From a virus (taxonomy: Duplodnaviria > Caudoviricetes), in the IMG/VR virus record IMGVR_UViG_3300032212_000108, positions 1 to 32,495 of that record: DNA of 32,495 nt; one strand, 5' to 3'. A program made the position numbers and the translations under genes. Position 1 is the stretch's first letter; every line of letters begins with the position of its first letter. This document shows positions 20,549 to 32,495 of this stretch, one piece after another. The notes beneath the pieces were generated by a model, which saw nothing but the letters and a program-made list of their open reading frames with translations, was not told the origin of the DNA and made no database searches.

Positions 20549-20589
20549 CTCTCCCCCGGGTTAACGACTGTCGTAATTACTGCTCAATA

Positions 20590-20630
20590 GTGGTTTTCTG
20601 CCCCACTTTTGGGTCTATTCGTTGTTATAT
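20590..20630 (+). other. Candidate attI-like cassette insertion site no. 1 (crossover G20624|TT)
   Basis: GTGGTTTTC-N16-CTATTCGTTG|TTATAT; same motif as 25996-26037; no attC hairpin. Confidence 0.6.
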
Positions 20631-21082
20631 TGCCTAATCCCGGCCTAGTAAATTAACCGCTCGCTTTGACTGAGTAGGTTTTGTTGGCATTGTTTTGTAC
20701 TCCCACCACTCACTCCCGTCATACTCATGTCGCTCTATCCAAAAGTCAGCCCCAACTACGATAAGATCTTCTGGTATCTCTGCACCACCAAATCCAGAAT
20801 CATACTCAATATTAAATAGTGCCTGTATGTCGCAGTCAAAAACGAATTTATCATTCCCGAACCACAGGATGTCAAATATTGTTTTCCCGTTCTCCTCTAA
20901 AACTTCCCTAGTATCTTCCAGTAAGTTGTTCATCAATCAATCCTCTTGTGTAACCGGCAAATATAACAATCAAATTCAACGCGGACTGTGTGCCGCGTGG
21001 CTTCGTTTAAATTACTTTCTTTTCGTCTACCATTTTAGCCCCCTTAAAGTTCATCGATGCACACATCCGGTTAATTTGGTCG
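20625..21082 (+). mobile_element. Solitary integron-type gene cassette (gene inverted relative to attC)
   Basis: Starts G|TTATATTGCC; its attC begins GGCAAATATAAC (complementary to that start) and ends in G|TTAAAC. Confidence 0.8.
20634..20936 (-). CDS. Conserved hypothetical phage protein (cassette cargo)
   Basis: YDSGFGGAEI..DLIVVG.DFWIERHEYDGSEWWEY; GAGGA RBS. Confidence 0.8.
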   Translation of the reverse strand: MMNNLLEDTREVLEENGKTIFDILWFGNDKFVFDCDIQALFNIEYDSGFGGAEIPEDLIVVGADFWIERHEYDGSEWWEYKTMPTKPTQSKRAVNLLGRD

Positions 21083-21088
21083 TTAAAC
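20961..21088 (+). repeat. attC-like site (solo)
   Basis: R'' ATATAAC, 5 nt, L'' AATTCAAC, CGGACTGTGTGC...GCACACATCCG, L' GTTAATT, 5 nt, R' GTTAAAC. Confidence 0.85.
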
Positions 21089-21547
21089 CTTCCCTTCCCG
21101 GCTCAACATATAATCAAGCCTCTCACCGTTGTTGTTGAATGGTTTTTTGCCGTCAACATAAAGCGGCTTGTGCCCTTTCGCCTCTACACCCTGCGCCCGG
21201 TATTGCTTGTGCCCTTCCCATGTTTCAGCGCATTCGGGACAGTATAGTTTTGTCTTCTTGCCGACCTTTGTTTCTGTGACAGGACCAACATTGCAGCAGT
21301 TTTGATTCTCACAACAACCTCTGACCCACACTCGATTATCTTCAATGTCGTCATGCACCTGCTTGACCAGATCGGTATTGCCGTCGATTAAATCAGCTTC
21401 GCACTGCTTGCAGATATTCCGCGTTCCGCCTGGCACCTTCTTTGGCGTGCCTTTCTCGCTGATGTTCTTGTACTGCTGGCATGTTTCGCATCTGAATTCA
21501 TTTGACATTTCCTTGATCTCCTTGATTGAATCTCTACTTTTGCACAT
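21083..21547 (-). CDS. Cys-rich zinc-binding hypothetical protein
   Basis: Multiple CxxC motifs; stop codon coincides with G|TTA. Confidence 0.7.
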   Translation of the reverse strand: MCKSRDSIKEIKEMSNEFRCETCQQYKNISEKGTPKKVPGGTRNICKQCEADLIDGNTDLVKQVHDDIEDNRVWVRGCCENQNCCNVGPVTETKVGKKTKLYCPECAETWEGHKQYRAQGVEAKGHKPLYVDGKKPFNNNGERLDYMLSREGKV

Positions 21548-21731
21548 TCAGGGTTTTTTGCAACTGTTTATCCGTACAGCACCATTTTCCTGATGCCGGG
21601 AAATTGGTTTTATTTGCCACGGTAACTACTCCACGCTCTTCCATCCTCTTCATCTCAGCCTTGAACCTGTCGACCTTCTCTTTCGGCCATGCTGCTATTA
21701 CTTTTGCTAGTGAGTTGCCCGCATGTTTCAT
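21534..21731 (-). CDS. Hypothetical protein
   Basis: ATGA overlap with the helicase stop. Confidence 0.6.
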   Translation of the reverse strand: MKHAGNSLAKVIAAWPKEKVDRFKAEMKRMEERGVVTVANKTNFPASGKWCCTDKQLQKTLNVQK

Positions 21732-23320
21732 TTCGTACTCCCAAACATTGCCTTGATATTATTTAGATGCCGCTTTCCGCGCTCGACCTGCTTTGAATAC
21801 TTGATGTTTCTATGCTGAATCCATTTTTTAACATCAACAGATAGCGACTCTGCATAAGTTTTATCTATGGCATTCGGCCAAACGCCAAACATTTCTTTAT
21901 ACATGTAGGCCGCCGCACCTTCTTTTTTCTTTTTATCGCGGCAATAGGTACGAAACTCAGCAAAAATACGGGTCTTTTCGTCCCTAGCTGTATCTCTGTT
22001 GCGGCGCTGCTCTGGTGTCAGTGTGTTTACGACTTCTTTTAGTTGGGCCTTGTGGTATTGAATCTCGGCCTTTTTACCTTCCAGTATGTGGCCACACCCA
22101 GGGCAGATATTTGTAGATTTGAATAGCATCCTGCACTTTTCGCATTCAATCTCTTTCGGCTCTTTCTTGTCTTGCTTCCGCTGTTCTATCCGGTCTTGCA
22201 CTTTCGATGCTGAATCAAGACTCCAGTCGTCTATAAACTCAACCGGCCCCATCTTCGGATCAAGTGACATGCCTCCATGGTCTATAACATTAGCGAACTT
22301 CTGATCTTCAAACGGCCTCAAAACCCGCCCTACGCCCTGCATCCAGCGCGATATAGATTTGGTCGCTGTTGCAAAACAAACAGTCTGGAGGCGTGGTATG
22401 TCTGTTCCCATGCCGATTATCATCACGTTGCAAATGATTAATATTTCGCCTGTGCTTATTTTCTTGAATATTTCAAAGCGCTCATTGTCTGGGGTTAGCG
22501 CATCAACATAAGCCGCCGGTATGCCCTCGCTGTTGAACTTTTCAACCAGGTCGTTAGCATTGGCCCTGCTGGCACAAAAAACCACTGTGGATGTGCCTGG
22601 CGCTATGCGCTTCCAATTCTCGACAACGCACCCCATTATTTTTTTATCGGCGTATGCTTCGCCTAACTCTTTGTTGTTGTACTCGTCCTTTTGAACCGTG
22701 ATGCCTGATAAGTCCGGCTTGGGGGCTGAGTAATAGCGGGGCTGTAGTAGGTGCCCTTGCTTAATAAGCTCCAGCATTGAAACAGGCTGCAACAATACTT
22801 CGCAAATATCTGCCAAGCCGCCCCCGTTGGTCGTGCAGGGCGTGGCGGTCAATAGGATAACTATTTTGTTGTCACCGTACTTGCCGTCACGAACATCGTT
22901 TATATACTCTGCTCGCTTGCTTGAAGCGTAGGTGTGGGCCTCGTCACATATCAGTGTTCTTGTTAATTTTGTTGCTGTCTTTGCAGACGACCTCTCGTAT
23001 TTGTTGATTCTGGCAAGCACTGTGTCGATTGAGCCTACGTCAATCATGTGTCGAGCGTCGTAGTATTCGCCCGACATGATAACGCCGCAATCTAGCCCAA
23101 GATCGTTGTAGCTGGTTTGTATCTGGTCAACCAGGTTACGACGTGGGGCCAAGAATAGCGTGTGATTGCCTTTCTGTGATGCTGTCTTGCAAATTGATGC
23201 TGAAGTTCGGCTTTTGCCTGCGCCTGTTGGCATGACTAAACAGATTGAGCGATGCCCCTGCTTAATGGCTTCGCGTATCATGTCTATGCTGGATTGCTGG
23301 TAATCTCTGAGTTGAATCAT
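21728..23320 (-). CDS. Superfamily 2 DEAH helicase (RadD/YejH-like) with C-terminal zinc finger
   Basis: LRDYQ Q-motif; MPTGAGKS; DEAH; LTATP; GTDIP; QGVGRVLR; CEKC..CPGC. Confidence 0.93.
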   Translation of the reverse strand: MIQLRDYQQSSIDMIREAIKQGHRSICLVMPTGAGKSRTSASICKTASQKGNHTLFLAPRRNLVDQIQTSYNDLGLDCGVIMSGEYYDARHMIDVGSIDTVLARINKYERSSAKTATKLTRTLICDEAHTYASSKRAEYINDVRDGKYGDNKIVILLTATPCTTNGGGLADICEVLLQPVSMLELIKQGHLLQPRYYSAPKPDLSGITVQKDEYNNKELGEAYADKKIMGCVVENWKRIAPGTSTVVFCASRANANDLVEKFNSEGIPAAYVDALTPDNERFEIFKKISTGEILIICNVMIIGMGTDIPRLQTVCFATATKSISRWMQGVGRVLRPFEDQKFANVIDHGGMSLDPKMGPVEFIDDWSLDSASKVQDRIEQRKQDKKEPKEIECEKCRMLFKSTNICPGCGHILEGKKAEIQYHKAQLKEVVNTLTPEQRRNRDTARDEKTRIFAEFRTYCRDKKKKEGAAAYMYKEMFGVWPNAIDKTYAESLSVDVKKWIQHRNIKYSKQVERGKRHLNNIKAMFGSTK

Positions 23321-23354
23321 TTTTCTACCTCCTACAGTAGTCCTAGTTTAATAA

Positions 23355-23404
23355 AAACGGCGGCCTGCTAGGTACAGGTTTTCAGGGTATCCCCCTAGCC
23401 GTTT
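23355..23404 (-). promoter_or_regulatory. Structured three-way-junction RNA leader upstream of the helicase
   Basis: AAACGGC...GCCGTTT closing stem encloses GGG-GATA-CCC and CCTG-TACCTAG-CAGG hairpins joined by TGAAAA. Confidence 0.45.
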
Positions 23405-23411
23405 ATTTACA

Positions 23412-23612
23412 TTACTCTGTTGCTTTATTGGCTGCAACTGGTGATTTAACCAGCTCTTGCGCAAGCTCACCATTCATCCATTCCCAGCAGATACGGCCAC
23501 AGCCTAAACACAGCTGATACTCCCCAGCTGTTACCTTGTCCCTGATAACTTTCCTTTCCGCCATTTGTCCACCACAAGAACATTGCACGTTGACCTCACT
23601 TTTTTTAGACAA
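23412..23612 (-). CDS. Small zinc-ribbon protein
   Basis: CSCGG...CLGCG. Confidence 0.55.
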   Translation of the reverse strand: MSKKSEVNVQCSCGGQMAERKVIRDKVTAGEYQLCLGCGRICWEWMNGELAQELVKSPVAANKATE

Positions 23613-23951
23613 TAACTCTCACTGACCTTAAGGGTGATATATATAATATAAGCCCTACCGCCTGAATGGTTGTGAAGTGAATAGCCACAGTACTCACTAC
23701 GCTAGTCAATAATAGCCATATTATTCGGAACCCTAATGCCCTGGTATTGGATGGAGGGTCAGTCCACATAGCAAATATCACCACTGTACCCGTTTTTATG
23801 CCAGTAACGTGCTGTTTACGCTCTGGCTGCCCTCGGTCACAAAGGGCTGGCTATTACTTTCTACACTGATAACCCTCAGCCGTTGGTATACCCGACAGGG
23901 AGTGTATTTTTAGAGTTGACCCTAATATTGTAGATAACTTTATCTTTAGGG

Positions 23952-24047
23952 TTTACAAGAAGGGAAGTTTGTATATAATTACTCACAGACTCCCCGTCTA
24001 ACTCCGAAACCGCTCTAGGATCACTAGTCCTTTGATGAGCGGTTTTT
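23952..24047 (+). ncRNA. Candidate antisense small RNA (promoter plus ~60-65 nt RNA ending in a terminator)
   Basis: TTTACA(23952)-16-TATAAT(23974); stem AAACCGCTC(24007)...GAGCGGTTT(24045) followed by a T-run; opposite to phage transcription. Confidence 0.55.
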
Positions 24048-24232
24048 CTATTTTACATCCACCATTTTTTAAATCAAGCTGAAATTAAGGTGGCGACTAA
24101 CAGGCCTCCGGAATCCTAACCGGAACACTTGGTTTTGCTATGCGGGCACCAGTGGCCTTTGTGTGTTTTTGTTTGCCAGTCAATCACCGGGAAACCTGCA
24201 CCATCACAGGCTATGTTAGGTTTATTGTACTA

Positions 24233-24421
24233 CTATTCCCATTTCTTAGTATTGGCAACGCGCCACATTTGGCCAGTGATTCTTCTCAGGTTCGCCATGT
24301 CTCGTTCGCTGATCTTGTCTTCGAGGAACTTGTACAAGTCTAGCCGGGATTGCTCCAGCTTTTCCAGCTCAAGGACTGGGACTGGTATTTTTTTAGTCAT
24401 AGCTTCCCCCTTGTAGGGCAT
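24233..24421 (-). CDS. Hypothetical protein
   Basis: Probable start MTKK at 24400 with GGGG RBS; overlaps the upstream stop. Confidence 0.55.
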   Translation of the reverse strand: MPYKGEAMTKKIPVPVLELEKLEQSRLDLYKFLEDKISERDMANLRRITGQMWRVANTKKWE

Positions 24422-24540
24422 TCGCCCTTTAGCCGTTCTGTCACGTACCGCACGAGCCGTTCTTCCTGCTCCGGGCGTATGTGTACCATTATTGATTTAG
24501 TCAGCCCTCGGGCCTTACGGGCCGCCCTTGTCTCTCGCAT
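24397..24540 (-). CDS. Small basic putative DNA-binding protein (ribbon-helix-helix-like)
   Basis: MRETRAARKARGLTKSIMVHIRPEQEERLVRYV; AAGGA RBS. Confidence 0.5.
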   Translation of the reverse strand: MRETRAARKARGLTKSIMVHIRPEQEERLVRYVTERLKGECPTRGKL

Positions 24541-24556
24541 TCCTTGGGCTTTGGAT

Positions 24557-24760
24557 TTAGGCATTAGGCGCAGCACTAGGCAAGCATTTAGCGCAAAAGT
24601 CCGAATCAACAGCTTTCAGTAATTCCGCTTCACTGGCAGCGATATACCGAGTAGCACGCCTTGACTGACCGCTATGATTGCAATTTGAGACCGTTTCACC
24701 AGTGCAGATGTGATATTTGCCGCCTCTGTTTGATTTTCCTATGTATTGATTCGCGTTCAT
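24557..24760 (-). CDS. Hypothetical Cys/His protein
   Basis: GGAG RBS; HIC..CNH..CAKC. Confidence 0.6.
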   Translation of the reverse strand: MNANQYIGKSNRGGKYHICTGETVSNCNHSGQSRRATRYIAASEAELLKAVDSDFCAKCLPSAAPNA

Positions 24761-24796
24761 CTTCTTGATCTCCGGTTTGTCTCTGAATGTGTAACT

Positions 24797-24825
24797 ACTG
24801 TGGACTAGGTAACTGTTACTGTCAA
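24797..24825 (-). promoter_or_regulatory. Promoter TTGACA-17-CACAGT with palindromic operator GTAAC-A-GTTAC
   Basis: Perfect -35, weak -10; palindrome at 24809-24819. Confidence 0.55.
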
Positions 24826-24847
24826 TGGAATTATGATGCTAAAGACG

Positions 24848-24870
24848 AAAAAAACCCCGAACTAGCGGGG
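24848..24870 (-). terminator. Rho-independent terminator
   Basis: CCCCG-CTAGTT-CGGGG followed by T7 on the minus strand. Confidence 0.75.
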
Positions 24871-25037
24871 CAAGGCGTGGGAGATGTAGGGAGGGTGGGC
24901 CGGGAATTGATACCCGGTTAAGCCGATCAAGGAAAACAACCCACCATAATGCTTGCCTAGTTAATATACCCCAGCTAGGCGCTGGTACGTTATCACCACT
25001 ATATGCCCAGTGGCAGGCAGTTGAAATACTTTAGCGG

Positions 25038-25316
25038 TTAAGCTTCGTCTTGTAAAGGCTTCATGTACTGGCCTATGCAAATCTGTCTTGCGTACGCTGC
25101 TGTGACTTCAAACTTTTCACCGATTTCCCGATACGTGAACTTCTTCCCGTTCGGCTTGCGCTCTTTTCGTAGCGCTCTCATTAGCTCTGCGTCGTAATGC
25201 GTGAGTTTATCGCCCGACCTTTGGCCTTCGATGGGCCAATGTTTGCACCCTGTCTTGTAGCCTGTGGGGCTGTCGAATATTAGCGTTCCACATTCTGAAC
25301 ATTGAAAATGGCTCAT
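25038..25316 (-). CDS. Zinc ribbon plus HTH DNA-binding protein
   Basis: CSEC..C and KLT....FTYREIGEKFEVTAAYARQI. Confidence 0.7.
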   Translation of the reverse strand: MSHFQCSECGTLIFDSPTGYKTGCKHWPIEGQRSGDKLTHYDAELMRALRKERKPNGKKFTYREIGEKFEVTAAYARQICIGQYMKPLQDEA

Positions 25317-25741
25317 TTCTCACCTCTGTATTTCAGGTCTTCAGGGTTAATCAACGCATATTCACCAGTCATATTGAGCCATTCAACGCAATGATGTTCT
25401 AGTAATTCAAGATACCCGCACAGCTCCTTGTTAGTCATTTTGCTGGTGCGTGCTCTCTGCGCTATTTGCTCCCCGTTTATTCCTGTTCGATACTCCAGCG
25501 GAAGCAATAGCTCCACAAGCTCATCGTGAATATCCTCAGACTTAACATGAATGCCTCGCGTCTCGAATAGCATTTTTTTAACCTGCCCGTACCAGTACCA
25601 CATAAGCCGATTAAGGGCAGCACTTCTATTATCAGACCAATCGTCAACCGTCACCTTTAGCGGCCCTGGCGCACGCTCTTTGATGTGCTCTATACAGAAT
25701 TTAAAGCTGTTCTTGCCCTGTATTTTAAATGTACGCTTCAT
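25313..25741 (-). CDS. ninB: NinB/Orf family recombination protein
   Basis: RSAALNRLMWYW...RTSKMTNKELCGYLELLE is a NinB/YbcN-type signature. Confidence 0.75.
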   Translation of the reverse strand: MKRTFKIQGKNSFKFCIEHIKERAPGPLKVTVDDWSDNRSAALNRLMWYWYGQVKKMLFETRGIHVKSEDIHDELVELLLPLEYRTGINGEQIAQRARTSKMTNKELCGYLELLEHHCVEWLNMTGEYALINPEDLKYRGEK

Positions 25742-25971
25742 CTGATTTCATATCCAATTGCTCCGCTATCATTATCAGACACCCATTTTTGGCATAAATG
25801 AAAAATATTAGTAGTCGATGCCTCAGGTGTTCTTTTCGAGTATGACCTGCCGCGCTTTAGCAGATACCGGCCTTTTCTGATCCGGCAACCGCTAATGCTG
25901 AATCGCTTTCCGTCTAGCTCTATTTTTATCCTAAGCTGGCTTTTCATAATGTTATTTTTATGCCTCCGCAA
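25738..25971 (-). CDS. Hypothetical basic protein
   Basis: ATGA overlap with ninB. Confidence 0.5.
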   Translation of the reverse strand: MRRHKNNIMKSQLRIKIELDGKRFSISGCRIRKGRYLLKRGRSYSKRTPEASTTNIFHLCQKWVSDNDSGAIGYEIR

Positions 25972-25995
25972 GATTATGTTTTTTATATTGAATGT

Positions 25996-26037
25996 GTAGT
26001 TTTCGTTTGAACTGGTTATCCCTATTCGTTGTTAGCT
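25996..26037 (+). other. Candidate attI-like site no. 2 at the head of the main array (crossover G26031|TT)
   Basis: GTAGTTTTC-N17-CTATTCGTTG|TTAGCT; matches 20590-20630. Confidence 0.6.
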
Positions 26038-26283
26038 GTACTGCCTTTCCTCATAGTAGGGGCGCAACCTAAATGTAAAGCACAGTACAAGTAGGTATGG
26101 CTCTCCGTGATTCCATCTCATTCTTGGAATCCAGTTCCACCACAAGAGGTGCATATCAAATTGAAACTTAAAGCCCTCAATTCGGCGTCCGTTATACTTT
26201 CCACGAGGCCAGCTAACAATACGCTTGTTCCGACCTGCTACGTCGGCGGTTGCTTTAAGTTTATCGGTTTCGCTCATCTTCAT
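26032..26283 (-). CDS. Hypothetical Trp-rich protein (cassette 1); starts inside the attC loop
   Basis: GAGGA RBS at 26286-26290 and the ATG both lie within attC 26211-26331; stop at G|TTA. Confidence 0.7.
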   Translation of the reverse strand: MKMSETDKLKATADVAGRNKRIVSWPRGKYNGRRIEGFKFQFDMHLLWWNWIPRMRWNHGEPYLLVLCFTFRLRPYYEERQYS

Positions 26284-26331
26284 ATTCCTCAGTGGTTTCG
26301 TTTCCGCAGTCGGCACAGCTGGCTGTTATGC
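26211..26331 (+). repeat. attC-like site 1
   Basis: AGCTAAC-AATAC-GCTTGTTC-CGACCTGC...GCAGTCG-GCACAGC-TGGCT-GTTATGC. Confidence 0.75.
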
Positions 26332-26874
26332 AGCAAATGCGTAGCTCTCAGGTAATATTAAGCGTACAAAGGTTCTATTGTGTGTTTCGGCGGCTGGGAT
26401 AGTTTCATGCACCATAGAAACATTCCCCACATAAACTTGGTTAGGCTTCAAAACATGAACCGTAGCGTGCGATAAATCCATGTGAGAGCAATCACCGCCC
26501 TCACCGATGTCATCAGCAAATTCACCTTCGTATGCCTTAGCTCCGATTTGATCGGAAGCAAGAATAATCCCGCCACCAGCGCAATCCTTAGTTATCCAAC
26601 TTGGTCCAGTATCCCATCCAGCAATTGTGTAAACGCCATCAATGTGCGCCCCGCCTCTGCGATGCGTAGTGCCTTTTTCAACCTCACCCTGATCAATCGT
26701 CATGTAAATAACATCGTCGGCATCAACGCCGTCTAACATAGAGTCAACGGTATCTTGCCAGCGCGAATACTGCTCTGGTAACTTCTCGCCTTTCTTAAAA
26801 GGCACCATGTATGCACGTTCTTTTGTGAACTCGGGGAAGGTAACTACGTTTCCGGTTTTTAATAGGCTTTTCAT
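26326..26874 (-). CDS. Putative 2OG-Fe(II) dioxygenase-fold protein (cassette 2)
   Basis: HIDG (HxD), distal HE and RTFVRL; double-stranded beta-helix pattern. Confidence 0.6.
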   Translation of the reverse strand: MKSLLKTGNVVTFPEFTKERAYMVPFKKGEKLPEQYSRWQDTVDSMLDGVDADDVIYMTIDQGEVEKGTTHRRGGAHIDGVYTIAGWDTGPSWITKDCAGGGIILASDQIGAKAYEGEFADDIGEGGDCSHMDLSHATVHVLKPNQVYVGNVSMVHETIPAAETHNRTFVRLILPESYAFAA

Positions 26875-26903
26875 GTCGTAATCCTCTAGTTAGAAGTGTT
26901 GCT

Positions 26904-27025
26904 GCATAACAATAGGGTCGAAATGACCCACTACCGCAGCGTTTAATTAAAAGTTTCTAGTGTTCGTTTACTTCTGTGCTTCCCGTGGCTCCGTTGCCGT
27001 GGGCATCTCACCCTAAGCGTTATAT
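26904..27025 (+). repeat. attC-like site 2
   Basis: GCATAAC-AATAG-GGTCGAAATGACCCAC...GTGGGCATCTCACC-CTAAGC-GTTATAT. Confidence 0.8.
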
Positions 27026-27289
27026 TTCTTTAGTTACTGGCTCGGCCTCATCCCAGTGCAGGTATACGTGCAGCTCTTCCCGTAGCCGCATCATGTCCTT
27101 CATACTCTCTATGCCATTGAAAGAAACCTTGTTAACTAATGGCTTTATCTGTTCGCGTAATTTAGCCTCAAAATCAACCATCTCTTTTTTCACTATCTCT
27201 TCGGTTACTGCTTTTTTTACCTCTCGCTCCAGCCCTGTTTTCAGTAGTTCCACCATGTTCAAATTTGCATTTGCAATAGCCATAATCAA
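27020..27289 (-). CDS. Hypothetical protein (cassette 3)
   Basis: GAGGA RBS; stop at G|TTA. Confidence 0.75.
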   Translation of the reverse strand: MIMAIANANLNMVELLKTGLEREVKKAVTEEIVKKEMVDFEAKLREQIKPLVNKVSFNGIESMKDMMRLREELHVYLHWDEAEPVTKEI

Positions 27290-27302
27290 TTCCTCAGTAA
27301 AA

Positions 27303-27363
27303 ATATAACAACGGCATCAAATCCGATGCTCGTACCTCGCACGGCTTATGCCGGGCGTTATGC
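27303..27363 (+). repeat. attC-like site 3 (61 bp)
   Basis: ATATAAC-AACGG-CATCAAAT-CCGATGC...GCACGG-CTTATG-CCGGGC-GTTATGC. Confidence 0.88.
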
Positions 27364-27405
27364 CGCTCTCGGCTTATGCGTTGAGCGGCGCTAAATGGAT
27401 GCCAA

Positions 27406-27600
27406 TCAAAAAGCAGCAATGCGCTGCCAAAGAATCTCTGAGTATTGCCACATGATGTCGTTTTGCAATTTCATGCGCTCCTGCTCTTCGGGGTCAAGAT
27501 CATCGAACAGAGGGCTATTGCCAATAAACTCACTAAGCGCGGTGGCTTTTTGGTCAAGTTCGTTTTTCTCGTCAACTACTCGTTGTTGGTATGGCTGCAT
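27406..27600 (-). CDS. Small conserved phage protein (crAss001_48-like; cassette 4)
   Basis: MQPYQQRVVDEKNELDQK..L..F...L...EQ..M..Q...M..YS.IL..RIA.F pattern; GGAG RBS. Confidence 0.7.
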   Translation of the reverse strand: MQPYQQRVVDEKNELDQKATALSEFIGNSPLFDDLDPEEQERMKLQNDIMWQYSEILWQRIAAF

Positions 27601-27623
27601 ATCATTTGCTCCAGTGTAAAGCG

Positions 27624-27747
27624 GCATAACAAAGCGCATTAACTCGGACACATGCCGCAGTGTCCGGCGCTCAATTTTAGTTAAATGTTTACGGCTTTCT
27701 TTTCAAATTCATCGTTGGCATGCGCTCGGTTATGCGTAACGTTATAC
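27624..27747 (+). repeat. attC-like site 4
   Basis: GCATAAC-AAAGC-GCATTAAC-TCGGACACATGCC...GGCATGCGCTCG-GTTATGC-GTAAC-GTTATAC. Confidence 0.82.
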
Positions 27748-28524
27748 GGCATGTCTGGCTTCAAACTGTGCCTCGGCCTCTTCTCGGTTTGCGTGGTCAT
27801 TTACGCACAGCACTCCGCACTCAATATCAGGCATAGGGACATTGCGGCCCGCATTGGGGTCTAGCTCATCCAAAAACACCCGCTTCCGCTTGCCGTCACC
27901 GGCATAAGTTTTATTTATGGCTACATTCATTTTCCGCTCTTGTTTTGCCATCTTCTCGAAAGCGTCAGGAAAATCAAATCTTATCTTGTTCCAGTATCCT
28001 GCCTGCCCTTTTATACATCCAATGCAGTTGTTATTGTTGTAACCCAGTTTATACATTGCAGGTAACTCAATCCCGGCCTGCTGCAAGATACGGTAACAAT
28101 CTTTTTTCACTATCCCGGCTTCCTGCAATACCCACTCAACCTCCAGCTCCGGATTTTGATCTTCGAATCGATCAATTCGTTTTTCTTCATCGGCAGTAAG
28201 TCCAAAAATGTGTACGTCATCTTCTAATTGGTAGGCTTTGCGCACATTCTTTTTTAGCTCTGTTGTGCATCGTGCGCCACCGACGCCGATCAGCCAGCCG
28301 GTTTTATCAAACACATCATAGATGTCTGAGTATTTTTCTGACTTAAGCAGTTTTATATCCTTGCCTAACCAGCTTTCAACGTCACGCAAAAATCTTATAT
28401 TGTCGTCATGCTCATAGGCGAGAGTGTCACAATACAAAACCTCTGCATCAGGATACTTTTCAAGCGCCATCTTTGCTGCAACAGCAGAGGCAGCCCCACA
28501 ACTAAACCATACTAGGTGTCTCAT
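27742..28524 (-). CDS. Phage PAPS-reductase-like (adenine nucleotide alpha hydrolase) protein (cassette 5)
   Basis: WFSCGAASAVA PP-loop-like motif; CTTELK; MYKLGYNNNNCIGCIKG; C-terminal ECGVLC. Confidence 0.8.
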   Translation of the reverse strand: MRHLVWFSCGAASAVAAKMALEKYPDAEVLYCDTLAYEHDDNIRFLRDVESWLGKDIKLLKSEKYSDIYDVFDKTGWLIGVGGARCTTELKKNVRKAYQLEDDVHIFGLTADEEKRIDRFEDQNPELEVEWVLQEAGIVKKDCYRILQQAGIELPAMYKLGYNNNNCIGCIKGQAGYWNKIRFDFPDAFEKMAKQERKMNVAINKTYAGDGKRKRVFLDELDPNAGRNVPMPDIECGVLCVNDHANREEAEAQFEARHAV

Positions 28525-28541
28525 AATTCCTCCTAAATGCC

Positions 28542-28614
28542 GTATAACCAGCGGTTCAACGGCGACATTCGCCGCGCTGGCGCTTACTCATGCGCGTTAA
28601 CCTTCACGTTATGT
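28542..28614 (+). repeat. attC-like site 5
   Basis: GTATAAC-CAGCG-GTTCAAC...GTTAAC-CTTCAC-GTTATGT. Confidence 0.85.
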
Positions 28615-28615
28615 T

Positions 28616-28903
28616 TCATAATTTCTTCCGCGCAATAATCCGTCTAATAACTGAATTGTGTTTATCCATTGCGCCGATTTGTTGCGCCTTGGTTGTCGGT
28701 GGTGTAAACGCCTTCCATAAACCTATCAATGCTTGTTCAGTTTCTATTAAGCGGTCATTCAGCACTTTGATTTCCACCGTTTGTTCATCCAGCCGTAAGG
28801 CTGCTTCATTGCAAGCGCCATTTGCTACGCCATCATCACACTGGATTGTTCTCCCCAGTTCGTACATTGCGCCGCTAATCACTCGTGTTTCTACTCGTTT
28901 CAT
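28616..28903 (-). CDS. Hypothetical protein (cassette 6)
   Basis: GGAG RBS; L..TIQCDDGVANGACNEAA.RL. Confidence 0.75.
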   Translation of the reverse strand: MKRVETRVISGAMYELGRTIQCDDGVANGACNEAALRLDEQTVEIKVLNDRLIETEQALIGLWKAFTPPTTKAQQIGAMDKHNSVIRRIIARKKL

Positions 28904-28918
28904 GTTTCACTCCAAAAA

Positions 28919-28985
28919 ACATAACAACCGCTTTCACTCGGACATGCGCAAAAGACGCGCCTGCCGGTGAAGCGGAGCGTTATAC
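28919..28985 (+). repeat. attC-like site 6
   Basis: ACATAAC-AACCG-CTTTCAC-TCGGACATGCGC...GCGCCTGCCG-GTGAAG-CGGAGC-GTTATAC. Confidence 0.88.
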
Positions 28986-29219
28986 GTCAGGCTTATCCGT
29001 GCATTTGCGGTTAAGCCCGTCGCACCGAAGCCCCTTACCGCTCATTGTTGAATAAAAGCCAGGGTTAGCGCCACACCAAGAGCATCTTCCAGCGCTCCAT
29101 TTCAGAAGCTTTCTGCCTGTTCTCAGCATCTTTGCTCCGCACCACGTAACCGAATTTCTTATAAATGCTCCGGCTTTGGTGTTCCAAAGAAAGTTATGTC
29201 TAATCGCATCAGTGTTCAT
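28980..29219 (-). CDS. Hypothetical Cys-containing protein (cassette 7, gene 2)
   Basis: Start MNTDAI with GAGGAG RBS and TAATG coupling; stop at G|TTA. Confidence 0.65.
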   Translation of the reverse strand: MNTDAIRHNFLWNTKAGAFIRNSVTWCGAKMLRTGRKLLKWSAGRCSWCGANPGFYSTMSGKGLRCDGLNRKCTDKPDV

Positions 29220-29341
29220 TATTCCGGCTCCTCTGTTTCGTTGCCGCAAATTGGGCATTCTGTTTCGCCAGCAACAAGCTGACATTCGTCGTCGCATGTC
29301 TGGCAATAAACTAAAACTATGTCGTCAGGGTCACAAAGCAT
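29219..29341 (-). CDS. 40-aa zinc-finger microprotein (cassette 7, gene 1; absent from ORF track)
   Basis: Manual translation MLCDPDDIVLVYCQTCDDECQLVAGETECPICGNETEEPE; two CxxC; TAATG overlap with the next gene. Confidence 0.65.
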   Translation of the reverse strand: MLCDPDDIVLVYCQTCDDECQLVAGETECPICGNETEEPE

Positions 29342-29358
29342 TGCTCATACCTCCAAAC

Positions 29359-29418
29359 GTATAACAATAAAAATTCAGTCGGACGCAAAAACCGCGCCGC
29401 TGATTTTTGGCGTTAGGC
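29359..29418 (+). repeat. attC-like site 7 (60 bp)
   Basis: GTATAAC-AATAA-AAATTCAG-TCGGACGC...GCGCCG-CTGATTT-TTGGC-GTTAGGC. Confidence 0.88.
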
Positions 29419-29419
29419 G

Positions 29420-29662
29420 TCATAAAGGGACACCATCACCATCAAACCATGTATCCGGGTCATCGCCAAATAATCGCTTTCTTGAGCTAACGAAAGCATC
29501 CCATTTAGTTATTGCTGTGTACGGATAATCACATGGCTCGTTTTGCATCCATGCTCTCATCATCTGTAATCGAGCGCCGCGCTGTCCACAACATTTGGCT
29601 AACCGAGATATTTCTTCTGCGCACTCTCCATGTATATCGGCATCTGGTTCTATATCAAACAT
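29420..29662 (-). CDS. Hypothetical protein (cassette 8)
   Basis: AGGAG RBS; QRGARLQMMR..WFDGDGVP. Confidence 0.75.
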   Translation of the reverse strand: MFDIEPDADIHGECAEEISRLAKCCGQRGARLQMMRAWMQNEPCDYPYTAITKWDAFVSSRKRLFGDDPDTWFDGDGVPL

Positions 29663-29684
29663 TTTTATATCTCCTGTTAAAATC

Positions 29685-29747
29685 GCCTAACAATTGCATT
29701 AACGCGGACGCAAAACAGCTTTGCGCCGGTTATGCTGGTCGTTATAT
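29685..29747 (+). repeat. attC-like site 8 (63 bp)
   Basis: GCCTAAC-AATTG-CATTAAC-GCGGACGCAAA...TTTGCGCCG-GTTATG-CTGGTC-GTTATAT. Confidence 0.9.
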
Positions 29748-29948
29748 TTCTCTCCGGCACATCAGCAACGCCAAAGCTTTTTTGCTGAGTAGCAAATGAG
29801 CTTCAACACTAGCGGCGATGTAGTCGGGCACTTTTCCGCGAGTGCCCCATCCTTTGTATGTACTTAAGCCTACCGCTAACAGTTTAGCCATTTGCTCCTC
29901 GGTGAGGCCAAGCCCGTTCCTGACCTCTGTTAGTTTTCCAAAATTCAT
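29742..29948 (-). CDS. XRE-family HTH transcriptional regulator (cassette 9, gene 3)
   Basis: LTEVRNGLGLTEEQMAKLLAVGLSTYKGW. Confidence 0.8.
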   Translation of the reverse strand: MNFGKLTEVRNGLGLTEEQMAKLLAVGLSTYKGWGTRGKVPDYIAASVEAHLLLSKKALALLMCRREI

Positions 29949-30160
29949 TTAAACCCATACCGTTTTAAAACACCTGTGATTTCCTGATTAGGACTCCCCA
30001 CGTATTTGCATGCATTTTCAATAGATTCTCGGCTGGCGATGTTGAAATTTGCGAATTCAAAGCCGCCTTGTTGTTGGCATTCTCTGTGAAGCTCACTCTC
30101 TCCGCCATCATCCTCGCCCCAGATAGTTGTCATGCCGACATTTCCTTTTTTAACTTTCAT
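29945..30160 (-). CDS. Hypothetical protein (cassette 9, gene 2)
   Basis: AGGAG RBS; ATGA overlap with the HTH gene. Confidence 0.7.
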   Translation of the reverse strand: MKVKKGNVGMTTIWGEDDGGESELHRECQQQGGFEFANFNIASRESIENACKYVGSPNQEITGVLKRYGFK

Positions 30161-30172
30161 ATCTAATCACTC

Positions 30173-30565
30173 CTATTTGTAAACGTAGCAAACAAATTCA
30201 CCTTCAAATCCTGCCGGTACAACGCCGGTGTCGATTTGGTGCTGAGTTGGTTTCCATGGTTTGCCGTGCTCTAAACCGTATTGCTCGGCGTGATACAGGC
30301 TAGTTACATAACGCTGTTTTTGTTCGGTTTGCTCGGCAGCCTCTTGTTTGGCTGACTCCAGCTCGCTCAGCATGTCTAGAATTTCAGCAATTTTTGCTTT
30401 GCCAGGCTTTCTCATTGGCTCTACTACAACGCTGTTGTTCTCAACGGTTACGTAGATGGTGTCACCCGTAATTGCGTGAGCTGATTTACGGATGGCCTCT
30501 TTGTCGGCACTTTCAATTGTTGCTGTGAAAACAAACTCGCCGTCGATTCGTGTAGTAGTTGCCAT
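30173..30565 (-). CDS. Hypothetical protein (cassette 9, gene 1)
   Basis: AAGGA RBS downstream of a strong promoter. Confidence 0.75.
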   Translation of the reverse strand: MATTTRIDGEFVFTATIESADKEAIRKSAHAITGDTIYVTVENNSVVVEPMRKPGKAKIAEILDMLSELESAKQEAAEQTEQKQRYVTSLYHAEQYGLEHGKPWKPTQHQIDTGVVPAGFEGEFVCYVYK

Positions 30566-30609
30566 TTTCTTTTTTCCTTGTTGGTCGCTTTTATCTCTAA
30601 CTTGTAAAT

Positions 30610-30638
30610 ATTATAGTACGCAATGCGTACCAATGCAA
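30610..30638 (-). promoter_or_regulatory. Sigma70 promoter TTGCAT-17-TATAAT with a perfect palindromic operator GTACGCA-N-TGCGTAC in the spacer
   Basis: Read directly; palindrome at 30616-30630. Confidence 0.8.
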
Positions 30639-30665
30639 GGATTATTTAAGCACCAAACAAAAGAA

Positions 30666-30736
30666 ATATAACAAAGCAATTGAGCGCGACCATCCCTCGC
30701 GGTGCTCGGTCTGTCGCCTCATTGCAACCGTTAGAT
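30666..30736 (+). repeat. attC-like site 9
   Basis: ATATAAC-AAAGC-AATTGAG-CGCGAC...GTCGC-CTCATT-GCAACC-GTTAGAT. Confidence 0.85.
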
Positions 30737-30739
30737 TGC

Positions 30740-31117
30740 TTATCGGTGTCCCCACTGATGGCCGCAATCGTGGCAAAGCTCATAATCAGCTTCAGGTAAT
30801 GCGAATGATACATTAGCGCCAGTCGTCGCCCATTCTTCACTTTCGCACTTCGGGCAAACCGCTTTAATAATCCTGTGAGAATCAATCCAGTATTTACCAG
30901 TCTTGCCTTGCACTCTAATTTTCATTTCATATTTAGAGTGGTCGCAAACAATCGCCTTACGTTCTTCTAGCCCGTGGCGAATGATTAACATCACGCCTTC
31001 TGGATATTCTTGCGCCATTTTCTTGAGCGCTTCTTTTTCAATGTCCTTCATCATCTGTTCCATTTCTCTGAAGGTCTTATTATCAAGTTCACGCCTTAGC
31101 GCTGATCCACCGCTCAT
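30740..31117 (-). CDS. Hypothetical protein with C-terminal zinc ribbon (cassette 10)
   Basis: CPKC...CHDCGHQW; GGAG RBS. Confidence 0.75.
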   Translation of the reverse strand: MSGGSALRRELDNKTFREMEQMMKDIEKEALKKMAQEYPEGVMLIIRHGLEERKAIVCDHSKYEMKIRVQGKTGKYWIDSHRIIKAVCPKCESEEWATTGANVSFALPEADYELCHDCGHQWGHR

Positions 31118-31142
31118 GTCATTACTCCGTAAGTTGGTCGCA

Positions 31143-31230
31143 ATCTAACAAAAGCAATAGAAGCGGACGGTTCGTCCGCAGTGCTTCGTAGCTTGCTTGG
31201 TCATGCCGCCGTTCATTGCTGCCGTTATAC
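31143..31230 (+). repeat. attC-like site 10
   Basis: ATCTAAC-AAAAG-CAATAGAA-GCGGACGG...CCGCCG-TTCATTG-CTGCC-GTTATAC. Confidence 0.85.
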
Positions 31231-31779
31231 CGCACTAGGTAGTTCAGCGGTGCATTCAACCTCGTTGCCCCATGCGTCCCAACCTGCGGTGGTAGTTCTA
31301 GCGAATAGCTCAACTCGTGGCAGATCACCAAAGGTGTCAACAATCATATCTCTAAAAAATGCAGGCTTTTGGCTATGGGCTTCTCTTGGATGGTGCCAGT
31401 GGTTCCCTTTCACTCTTTTTTCTGCTTTTACAGTCCCTTTCCTACAAAACAATAAATATTCATTGGCAAGGGTGAATGTACCGCCCAACCCAATGCCCTT
31501 TGGGGTCTTATCCCACACCAACATGGTGCTTGGCTTAAAACCCCATGCGCGAGCCACTTCGTAGCTTTGCTCTAGGTATTTGTTTATAGTCCAAAGGAAA
31601 AGAACGCAATTTTTATCGGCTATATCTCTTACCGGCAATCCTTTTATTTCATCTAATCCCATCGTTGGATATGTAAGTTTTAAACTACGCTCACTGTCCC
31701 CGCTTTTTCTTCCCTGTTTGCTTCCTGCCATCACTTGCCACGGCGGGTCTGCATAAATTATTTGATATTTCTTTGTCAT
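31225..31779 (-). CDS. MT-A70 family N6-adenine DNA methyltransferase (cassette 11)
   Basis: YQIIYADPPW; YPTM; LFLWT; WGF; HSQKP; RVELFAR..GWDAWGNE. Confidence 0.92.
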   Translation of the reverse strand: MTKKYQIIYADPPWQVMAGSKQGRKSGDSERSLKLTYPTMGLDEIKGLPVRDIADKNCVLFLWTINKYLEQSYEVARAWGFKPSTMLVWDKTPKGIGLGGTFTLANEYLLFCRKGTVKAEKRVKGNHWHHPREAHSQKPAFFRDMIVDTFGDLPRVELFARTTTAGWDAWGNEVECTAELPSAV

Positions 31780-31804
31780 AAATTCTAACTCCAGTGTAAT
31801 TGCG

Positions 31805-31863
31805 GCATAACCAAACCATCAAAACGATGCGCTACCGCGCACGTCTTATGGCAACTGTTATAA
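31805..31863 (+). repeat. attC-like site 11 (59 bp)
   Basis: GCATAAC-CAAAC-CATCAAAA-CGATGCGC-TACC-GCGCACG-TCTTATG-GCAACT-GTTATAA. Confidence 0.85.
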
Positions 31864-32232
31864 CTCTACCAATATCCCCAAGCCCTTAAGTGCGGCGGCT
31901 CGAGTTTCGAGCATGTCATTGGGCATCTGCTCCCACCCGTAAAATGTCTTGCCGTAATAAAGATCGTCACAATTCCGGTCTTCGTCGTTAAGCTCACCTT
32001 TTAAGCGAATCATCTTTTCTTTATAGCTTTCCTGGCCAACCACTTCGTAGTCATCATTGTAAATATCGCAAGGGCCGTCCTCTTCGTCTCTGTCACTCCA
32101 GCAGCCATAGGTTTTCTCTTTATCTAACCACTGATAAACAGTCTCATCATTTTCAGCAAGTACGAAAGTTTCAATTGCTTGATGGCTGTCTTTTTGTGAT
32201 AGGTGCTCAACATCAATTCTGTATAGGTTCAT
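31858..32232 (-). CDS. Acidic hypothetical phage protein (cassette 12)
   Basis: GAGG RBS; stop at G|TTA. Confidence 0.75.
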   Translation of the reverse strand: MNLYRIDVEHLSQKDSHQAIETFVLAENDETVYQWLDKEKTYGCWSDRDEEDGPCDIYNDDYEVVGQESYKEKMIRLKGELNDEDRNCDDLYYGKTFYGWEQMPNDMLETRAAALKGLGILVEL

Positions 32233-32247
32233 CTTTTTTACCTCGAG

Positions 32248-32376
32248 TTATAACAAGGCCGGTCAACTCAGACACACTACCGCGTGGCTTCGTTCTGGCT
32301 CTTGTGTTGGTTTAAGTTCATCGTTTTCAATCGGTTCATAGTTGCGGTAGCGTGCTGGTTACCGGCAACGTTAGCT
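32248..32376 (+). repeat. attC-like site 12
   Basis: TTATAAC-AAGGC-CGGTCAAC-TCAGACACACTACCGC...GCGGTAGCGTGCTG-GTTACCG-GCAAC-GTTAGCT. Confidence 0.85.
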
Positions 32377-32495
32377 GTCATACATTCCAAGCTCTTGGCC
32401 TAATTTTGTTAATTTATCTACAGCTTCAATTTGATCTTTAGTTACCTGCTTATTAACAGCGTCAGCCGCATCACGCAAACATTGTGCAAGCCCAT
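32371..32495 (-). CDS. 3' end of a further probable cassette gene (partial)
   Basis: ...GLAQCLRDAADAVNKQVTKDQIEAVDKLTKLGQELGMYDS* ends exactly at G|TTA. Confidence 0.65.
   Translation of the reverse strand, partial: GLAQCLRDAADAVNKQVTKDQIEAVDKLTKLGQELGMYDS

Follow-up and report, generated by a model that had tools for sequence, protein, structure and literature searches.

Gene cassettes bounded by attC sites but without an integron integrase gene, known as clusters of attC sites lacking integron-integrases (CALINs), have been published from the phages TJE1, PH101 and P12002L, and phage attC sites were recombined with attI1 by IntI1 in five of six tests (Qi et al. 2023, PMC9892861). Here we analysed the IMG/VR virus record IMGVR_UViG_3300032212_000108 (Caudoviricetes) over its whole length of 32,495 nucleotides (nt), hereafter the window, a linear record that is about 91% complete by its own estimate and ends inside a cassette array. 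This P22-like phage carries an integrase-less cassette system of inverted polarity, with direct comparative evidence of exchange. We consider it highly probable that the locus consists of two integron-type cassette arrays whose antisense genes differ between sister phages with cassette precision, likely moved by the integrase IntI in trans and likely read by early phage transcription. This reading starts from the attC geometry, the polarity, the end pairing, the cassette-precise sister differences, the two fixed docking points and the lack of an integrase in the contig.

Like the phage CALINs of PMC9892861, the locus has attC-bounded cassettes without intI and orphan methyltransferase cargo. 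It differs in having 13 sites in two arrays, against two to four per phage in Table S1 of that paper, and in that all of its genes are antisense, whereas TJE1 is canonical by our polarity rule. The accessible text of PMC9892861 calls the attC directions of P12002L merely divergent and does not report cassette exchange between sister phages for its CALINs. By the definition of a CALIN (at least two attC sites, no intI nearby), the window belongs to this class, as read from a 91% complete record. With sedentary and mobile integrons (e.g. MK672802) it shares the R''/L''/L'/R' layout, the site length of 59–129 bp, the extrahelical bases near positions 16, 20 and 24 and the R'/R'' pairing; unlike in those integrons, the genes of the window face the docking site, with stops in R' and ribosome-binding sites by R'', and there is no intI or layout resembling that of the cassette promoter Pc. 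A passage of PMC5027507 states that cassettes facing the promoter were never observed in mobile or sedentary integrons; it concerns inversion of whole cassettes by top-strand recombination, whereas in the window the gene is flipped relative to its own attC. The docking points of the window fit the short GWT or TGWT consensus of attG secondary sites (bioRxiv 10.1101/2022.09.11.507474) and form no hairpin, but, compared on that consensus, they go beyond the GWT requirement in sharing 13 nt and in being reused by several genomes. Compact phage integrons (G013, G034, L227–L230 and L234) have the same attC family, inverted genes and PAPS-reductase-like cargo; unlike the window, which has neither, they encode an IntI 28–45 nt from attI, just upstream of a phage integrase. 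We found no account of systematic inversion of genes against attC, or of phage IntIs with a compact attI, in a literature search that most subscription journals fell outside.

attC geometry and gene polarity

The cassettes and docking sites of the window are listed below, the strand of a cassette being that of its gene.

20615–20624, plus strand: docking site B, with 13 nt around G|TT in common with site A
20625–21082, minus strand: solo cassette, ORF (open reading frame) of about 99 aa (phrog_3972); attC 20961–21088; its distal G|TT overlaps the stop codon of the upstream phage gene
26002–26031, plus strand: docking site A, a hairpin-free stretch of constant sequence that leads up to the first G|TT
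26032–26325, minus strand: cassette 1, ORF of about 84 aa that starts in the attC loop and stops in the R' box, no Pfam or PHROG match; attC 26211–26331 (top strand plus)
26326–27019, minus strand: cassette 2, 182-aa ORF, phrog_8970 (unknown function); attC 26904–27025
27020–27357, minus strand: cassette 3, ORF of about 87 aa; attC 27303–27363
27358–27741, minus strand: cassette 4, small ORF related to crAss001_48 (PF21825); attC 27624–27747
27742–28608, minus strand: cassette 5, 260-aa PAPS-reductase-like ORF (phrog_424); attC 28542–28614
28609–28979, minus strand: cassette 6, 95-aa ORF; attC 28919–28985
28980–29412, minus strand: cassette 7, two small ORFs (40 aa, Cys-rich, and about 79 aa); attC 29359–29418
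29413–29741, minus strand: cassette 8, 80-aa ORF with homologues in L154 and L202; attC 29685–29747
29742–30730, minus strand: cassette 9, three ORFs (130, 71 and 68 aa, the last helix-turn-helix-like by eye); attC 30666–30736
30731–31224, minus strand: cassette 10, 125-aa ORF; attC 31143–31230
31225–31857, minus strand: cassette 11, 184-aa MT-A70 family methyltransferase (PF05063); attC 31805–31863
31858–32370, minus strand: cassette 12, 124-aa ORF (phrog_25048); attC 32248–32376
32371–32495, minus strand: start of a further cassette, seen in the sequence and cut by the contig end

An arm-pairing detector of our own recovered the 12 attC sites that a preliminary description of this DNA had counted, together with a 13th at 20961–21088, in the solo cassette at 20625–21082, which that description had overlooked. 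With 15.0, the solo site had the best arm score of the window; among the 20 hits of at least 8 that six shuffles produced, none reached 13. Taking an attC site to have R'' (RYYYAAC) and R' (GTTRRRY) boxes with conserved AAC/GTT and a length of about 55–141 bp, we found this form in all 13 sites, which measure 59–129 bp and have invariant TAAC and GTTA, with some flanking letters departing from the R/Y consensus. Mean likeness among the sites is only 43%. Every site carries two or three unpaired bases on the 5' arm of the plus strand, near positions 16, 20 and 24, and none on the other arm; these positions match the extrahelical bases numbered G16/20/T24 in PMC5027507. The plus strand scored higher as the top strand in 12/12 array sites, narrowly so for site 9.

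This polarity rule was checked on a Vibrio-type control array and on TJE1, both called canonical, and Table S3 of PMC9892861 gives the aadA7 strands in line with it. The cassette genes of the window are all on the minus strand (13/13), co-directional with the phage genes and antisense to the attC top strand (plus); not one of the 13 lies on the top strand, where it would be readable from a Pc at attI. A minus-strand Shine–Dalgarno sequence and start codon lie near R'' in 12 of the 13 cassettes, in cassette 1 inside the loop. Cassette 9 is exceptional in having there a promoter-like stretch (TTGCAT-17-TATAAT with a palindrome in the spacer, 30600–30635, minus strand) ahead of its three genes; it was read by eye and is missing from the computed promoter list. 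The stop codon TAA falls inside the R' box, as the reverse complement of the TTA of R', in 8/13 cassettes and 8–49 nt away in the other five. Gene and attC thus point in opposite directions within each cassette, and the recombinogenic bottom strand doubles as the coding strand. Top-strand insertion of whole cassettes was rejected as a cause of the inversion, since it would flip gene and attC together.

The five long attC loops (at 20961, 26211, 26904, 27624 and 32248) are purine-rich on the bottom strand (0.55–0.63), and genes of L136 and L138, two sister genomes described below, start inside an attC loop as that of cassette 1 does. Several of the five long loops resemble the starts of short reading frames. 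PHROG matches were obtained for 5/12 array cassettes and none for the other 7/12. The cargo is phage-type, with an MT-A70 methyltransferase, a PAPS-reductase-like protein, a crAss001_48-related protein and two PHROG families of unknown function. Cassette 9 also gave a weak NF040522 match, far below the cut-off, and small helix-turn-helix cassettes like its own occur in G013, L202 and L234.

Pairing of the cassette ends

The preliminary description had paired the R'' of each array site with the R' at the start of the same cassette, as expected of integron cassettes. All 12 of its quoted pairs were found in place, 11 perfect and one with the single mismatch it had noted. The longest perfect complementary runs between the R'' flank and the cassette's own start are 8, 12, 9, 11, 12, 9, 9, 8, 11, 10, 5 and 10 bp for cassettes 1–12, which sum to 114 and reach at least 7 bp in 11/12 cassettes. 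Between R'' and the R' in place the runs are 4–5 bp and reach 7 bp in 0/12, in agreement with its statement that no site has a fully complementary 7-mer of its own in place. When the 12 R'' flanks were randomly assigned to the 13 cassette starts, none of 1,000,000 permutations reached 114 (mean 63.9, standard deviation 6.0, maximum 108), and with the solo cassette included (own run 8, in place 4) none of 300,000 reached the observed pairing. Circularised in silico, the bottom strands folded better than the in-place sites in 10/12 cases with 7-mer ends (two ties) and in 12/12 with 6-nt flanks. Neither of the two outcomes against which the preliminary description had staked its reading, equally good permuted pairs or better folding in place, occurred.

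Specificity of the end pairing is limited by 11 of 144 non-own pairs that reach at least 7 bp. The R'' of cassette 9 pairs over 13 bp with the start of cassette 3 (11 bp with its own), and that of cassette 11 over 10 bp with the start of cassette 4 (5 bp with its own). For sites 4 and 5 the minimum-energy fold of the circularised bottom strand differs from the full canonical hairpin. The same test on the Vibrio-type control (MK672802, 16 sites) gave at least 7 bp in 15/15 cassettes and a mean run of 9.5 bp, equal to the mean of the window. The end pairing is real; because a canonical array shows it equally, it is ordinary for integron cassettes, a textbook footprint and not itself new.

Docking sites and cassette exchange between sister phages

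A metagenome scan with the NinB-like protein of the window returned L135, 100% identical to the window and equal to it in length, and three sisters. L136–L138 share their assembly prefix with L135; further sister sequences came from runs X1 and X2–X4, the latter from one study. Identity of L136 and L138 with the window extends as far as the G|TT at 26031, beyond which both have other cassettes; docking site A is therefore the same in the three genomes, with a different first cassette behind each, and the identity ends at GTTA. The place next to site A is occupied by a 77-aa ORF without a family match and the NinB-like gene, likewise in L136 and L138. Docking site B has other first cassettes behind it in X1 and X2. 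Docking points 20624 and 26031 form one of only two identical 9-mer pairs among 33,411 GTTA pairs, and no attC-like fold was found in the left flanks of the docking sites. In its behaviour, docking site A appears attI-like.

The L136 array contains a DNA methylase, a 92-aa gene that starts in its attC, a canonical DUF3800 cassette and then cassette 4, which is 98% identical to that of the window from G|TT to G|TT between different neighbours, with only three shared bases before the G|TT. In L138, three other cassettes are followed by cassette 5, beginning exactly at its G|TT (the G of GTT). The gene of cassette 10 (87% nucleotide identity) is the last cassette at docking site B in L136, before the 21082 boundary, with the same joint in X1; the identity with L136 runs from G|TT to the TAAC of R'' and ends exactly there. 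Movement of whole units with crossover at G|TT is thus seen, by comparison only, for cassettes 4, 5 and 10 and at docking site A. In X1 the cut end cassette seems to be joined to docking site B (20629 to 32369, side of 30 nt). In X2–X4, cassette 7 (28976–29377) has five differences in 402 nt (about 99% identity) and the backbone at 24877–25752 has 66 differences and nine gaps in 876 nt (about 92%). End pairing is kept in six of eight sister cassettes.

Not all breakpoints fall at G|TT. The cassette 7 identity with X2–X4 ends 12 nt further in than the TAAC of R'', and the body of attC3 (one difference in 60) lies behind another reversed gene start on an X2 contig. Judged from these alignments, genes and attC bodies have been re-paired at the R'' side. 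This could reflect top-strand recombination at R'', given as 1,000–10,000 times rarer in PMC5027507, or short-homology recombination, and three cases cannot decide between them.

Beside site B, the 69 nt to its left (20559–20627 of the window) are kept in X2–X4 with eight differences and contain a small hairpin, and the HNH-like gene left of these 69 nt is replaced by another gene in X2–X4. The 110 nt after the DUF3800 gene of L136 (764–1633, minus strand) are a GC-rich hairpin stretch with no Rfam match.

Inverted sites in other viruses

A pattern for the attC family of the window, without gene-strand bias, was run over IMG/VR and gave 73 loci with 78 sites, 61 of them unique; an earlier pattern scan (15 loci), biased toward inversion by design, was left out of the counts. 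By a strict rule requiring a Shine–Dalgarno sequence plus an ORF, 29 of the 61 unique sites were inverted, one canonical, two both and 27 neither, with two near an end. The strict rule called 0 inverted and 5 canonical among the 16 control sites, and 9 inverted and 0 canonical among the 13 of the window. A looser rule, applied to the 29 unique sites with an arm score of at least 9, gave 15 inverted, 4 canonical and 10 unclear.

Upstream of the close viral MT-A70 homologues (78–81% identity), the hairpin reads as a bottom strand on the gene strand in 6/6 cases, by eye, and the distant homologues (at most 58%) had no detector hit within 200 nt in 26/27. The strand call of the detector fails on sites near MT-A70 homologues that we take to be Bacteroidota-like, and these were read by eye. 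A genome scan with the MT-A70 alignment returned six loci, none of them beside an intI-linked array by our detector. In P12002L, the top strand of attC1 is opposite to the methyltransferase genes. By eye, P12002L (L141, 29150–39250) seems to have more attC-like sites around its methyltransferase and mom-like genes than the two that PMC9892861 tested, and these appear inverted.

Phage integrases with compact attI sites

IntI was searched for in 49 of the 73 IMG/VR records, from which duplicates and some weak sites had been removed by hand, and in the Vibrio control. Two of the 49 (G013 and G034) exceeded the TIGR02249 cut-off, with 390 and 372 bits against 265. Aligned with Vibrio IntI, both have what we take, from assumed residue roles, to be the catalytic residues and the IntI-specific insertion. 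G034 has HK97-like terminase, portal, capsid and tape-measure genes, and G013 has tape-measure, head and primase genes and terminal repeats. The terminase family PF17289 matched 7/50 records and was a poor phage test; the PHROG hallmark check covered G013, G034 and the neighbours of the IntI loci. The integrons of G034 and G013 each comprise intI, attI and, as listed, four and six cassettes, respectively, with end pairing of 8–11 bp. Both arrays are inverted, most cassette genes reading towards intI, and cassette 5 has a 43% homologue in that of G013.

A scan with the G013/G034 IntI alignment yielded 35 viral loci. In seven of these records (L226–L230, L233 and L234, where L226 is G034 and L233 is G013) the docking G|TT lies 28–45 nt upstream of the intI start; the genes upstream share the strand of intI, and in 7/7 another integrase, of phage type, follows at most 1.2 kb downstream. 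L228 was placed in this group by its motif, the chain search having missed it. The seven compact IntIs fall on one side of a branch with a Shimodaira–Hasegawa-like approximate likelihood ratio test (SH-aLRT) value of 100, together with unnamed metagenomic proteins, in a quick, midpoint-rooted tree of 36 proteins with two named bacterial rows besides the Vibrio-type group. A first tree had long-branch rows within the clade, and four were removed for the second. Five further loci (L232, L235, L236, L258 and L259) have the site 226–294 nt from intI and canonical cassettes; eight of the 35 had too little upstream DNA and the remaining ones showed no clear chain. Shared site family, polarity and cargo are what suggest a link between the window phage and the compact IntI clade.

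Beside these, six loci (L242–L245, L247 and L248) appear to form a second viral IntI group, marked by a short upstream motif peculiar to it and by an inverted methyltransferase cassette in at least one case. In the virus Rctr41k (L261, KX853513, 4680–9434), an IntI-like gene is followed by five attC-like sites on the same strand, with genes apparently canonical.

Discussion

We propose that IntI would fold and cut the bottom strand, here the coding strand, and excise the cassette, probably as a circle, which would then insert at the docking G|TT or at another attC. Either the host or a co-infecting phage may supply the integrase, the latter resembling those of the seven viral records with intI, compact attI and inverted cassettes that read towards intI. 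An early transcript would enter the array at its far end and proceed towards the docking site, and promoterless genes would be kept only if they faced it, which presumably is why the inversion persists. In this scheme we infer the enzyme, the circle and the expression. The claim of the preliminary description that the units are integron cassettes split at G|TT stands, on the attC geometry and the sister genomes; its further claim, that they travelled as circles, is likely by analogy. A circular intermediate is the textbook route for integron cassettes. Direct attC × attC exchange between two phage genomes might take the place of circles and would keep the same ends together.

Several observations weigh against IntI-driven movement of these cassettes. 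A complete integron has intI adjoining its array, and the tyrosine recombinase family PF00589 had zero matches across the 32,495-nt window, about 91% complete, so that the enzyme is not tied to the phage. Neither docking site fits the compact phage attI profile (site A, score −13.0, rank 300 of 606), the only attI model used; the docking points are fixed and reused yet lack this match. L136–L138 have the assembly prefix of L135, and X1 may be the source; they are therefore phages co-occurring with the window and not independent samples. Two sister cassettes break the end pairing, the first of L138 (own 4, in place 9) and cassette 4 of L136 (one mismatch), and the canonical DUF3800 cassette of L136 makes the inversion less than absolute. 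The breakpoints of cassettes 10 and 7 and of attC3 at or near R'' go beyond bottom-strand recombination alone. Finally, no circle or single-cassette excision joint was found in the contigs of four runs, contigs being prone to drop rare variants.

An intI of the phage itself could lie in the stretch that the contig lacks, the record being linear, about 91% complete and broken off inside the array, and related site families do occur in phages with their own IntI. We think this unlikely: intI lies 28–45 nt from the docking G|TT in 7/7 compact integrons, and that place is taken here, as in L136 and L138, by the 77-aa ORF and the NinB-like gene. The same NinB-like gene adjoining the array, the lack of IntI in the contig and the three breakpoints at R'' or the left arm, where the arms of different sites are alike, lend something to another scenario, in which a single acquisition brought in the attC sites and phage recombination proteins now shift cassettes through short homologies between similar attC arms, with no integrase. 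Yet the cassette 5 identity with L138 starts exactly at the G of GTT, that at site A ends at GTTA, just three shared bases precede the G|TT of cassette 4, the attC sites average only 43% alike, and arm exchange would break the R'/R'' pairing that 11/12 cassettes keep; we hold this scenario to be quite improbable.

An array captured in one block from a host chromosomal integron, and inert since, would have precedent in the phages with captured chromosomal integron segments that PMC9892861 describes, and the canonical DUF3800 cassette of L136 has its nearest named homologues in marine Gammaproteobacteria. Such an origin is very hard to reconcile with the phage-type cargo (PHROG matches in 5/12 array cassettes), the GC content equal to that of the early backbone (0.458 vs 0.459), the genes antisense to attC and the different arrays behind one docking point in three sister genomes. 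That the hairpins are terminators or RNA structures, with end pairing a matter of chance or a by-product, is refuted as the main explanation and keeps virtually no probability: several attC inner stems are indeed among 20 terminator-like hairpins (9.1 expected), but the pairing spans 300–1000 nt between unit ends, no Rfam family was found in the window, L136 or L138, and sisters exchange with cassette precision. The units are integron cassettes rather than terminator hairpins because the attC geometry holds in 13/13 and sister cassettes begin at G|TT.

Beyond the movement of integron-type cassettes by IntI in trans, we put forward, tentatively and with somewhat more doubt than confidence, a phage-run branch of integrons. 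In this branch a clade of IntIs, placed where the early operon ends and paired with a compact attI that lacks a promoter, would build and shuffle a phage-specific pool of back-to-front cassettes, integrase-less phages would join through docking sites of their own, and R''-side exchange would re-pair genes with new attC bodies. If true, the hypervariable regions in which phages carry small genes (for methyltransferases, DNA modification and unknown functions) would have a site-specific mechanism behind them, and integrons would no longer be just a bacterial anti-phage store but be used by both sides. Inverted cassettes would be silent behind a bacterial Pc and readable in a phage operon, which could hold two pools partly apart. 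The R''-side breakpoints bear on how genes acquire attC sites; re-pairing there, if true, would let one see how new cassettes arise, a long-standing problem. The arrays of the three sisters, the two docking sites and the seven phage IntIs lend themselves directly to standard attC × attI assays.

Other features of the phage genome

10334–16159, minus strand: P22-like backbone (coat, scaffold, portal and large terminase), Pfam and PHROG matches
21728–23320, minus strand: helicase, Pfam and PHROG matches
25313–25741, minus strand: NinB-like gene, Pfam and PHROG matches

The P22-like coat, portal, terminase and head-closure proteins, the helicase and the NinB-like protein are all encoded on the minus strand. 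The nearest named terminases, from Sodalis and Pseudomonas phages, are 56–59% identical, and the host is probably gammaproteobacterial. Searches of IMG/VR with the NinB, helicase and cassette 2 proteins found no relatives among the records open to them, and no cassette DNA with attC was common to named phages. A terminase scan gave 80 loci at 59–78% identity; nine (five plus four) were put through the attC detector, with an array in 0/9. The replication modules differ between sisters, with DUF1376 and DnaB in L136 (5187–7117) and a DEAD-type helicase in the window (21728–23320). At 169–1890 on the minus strand, the window encodes a 573-aa tail-like protein with a collar domain and beta-propeller repeats.

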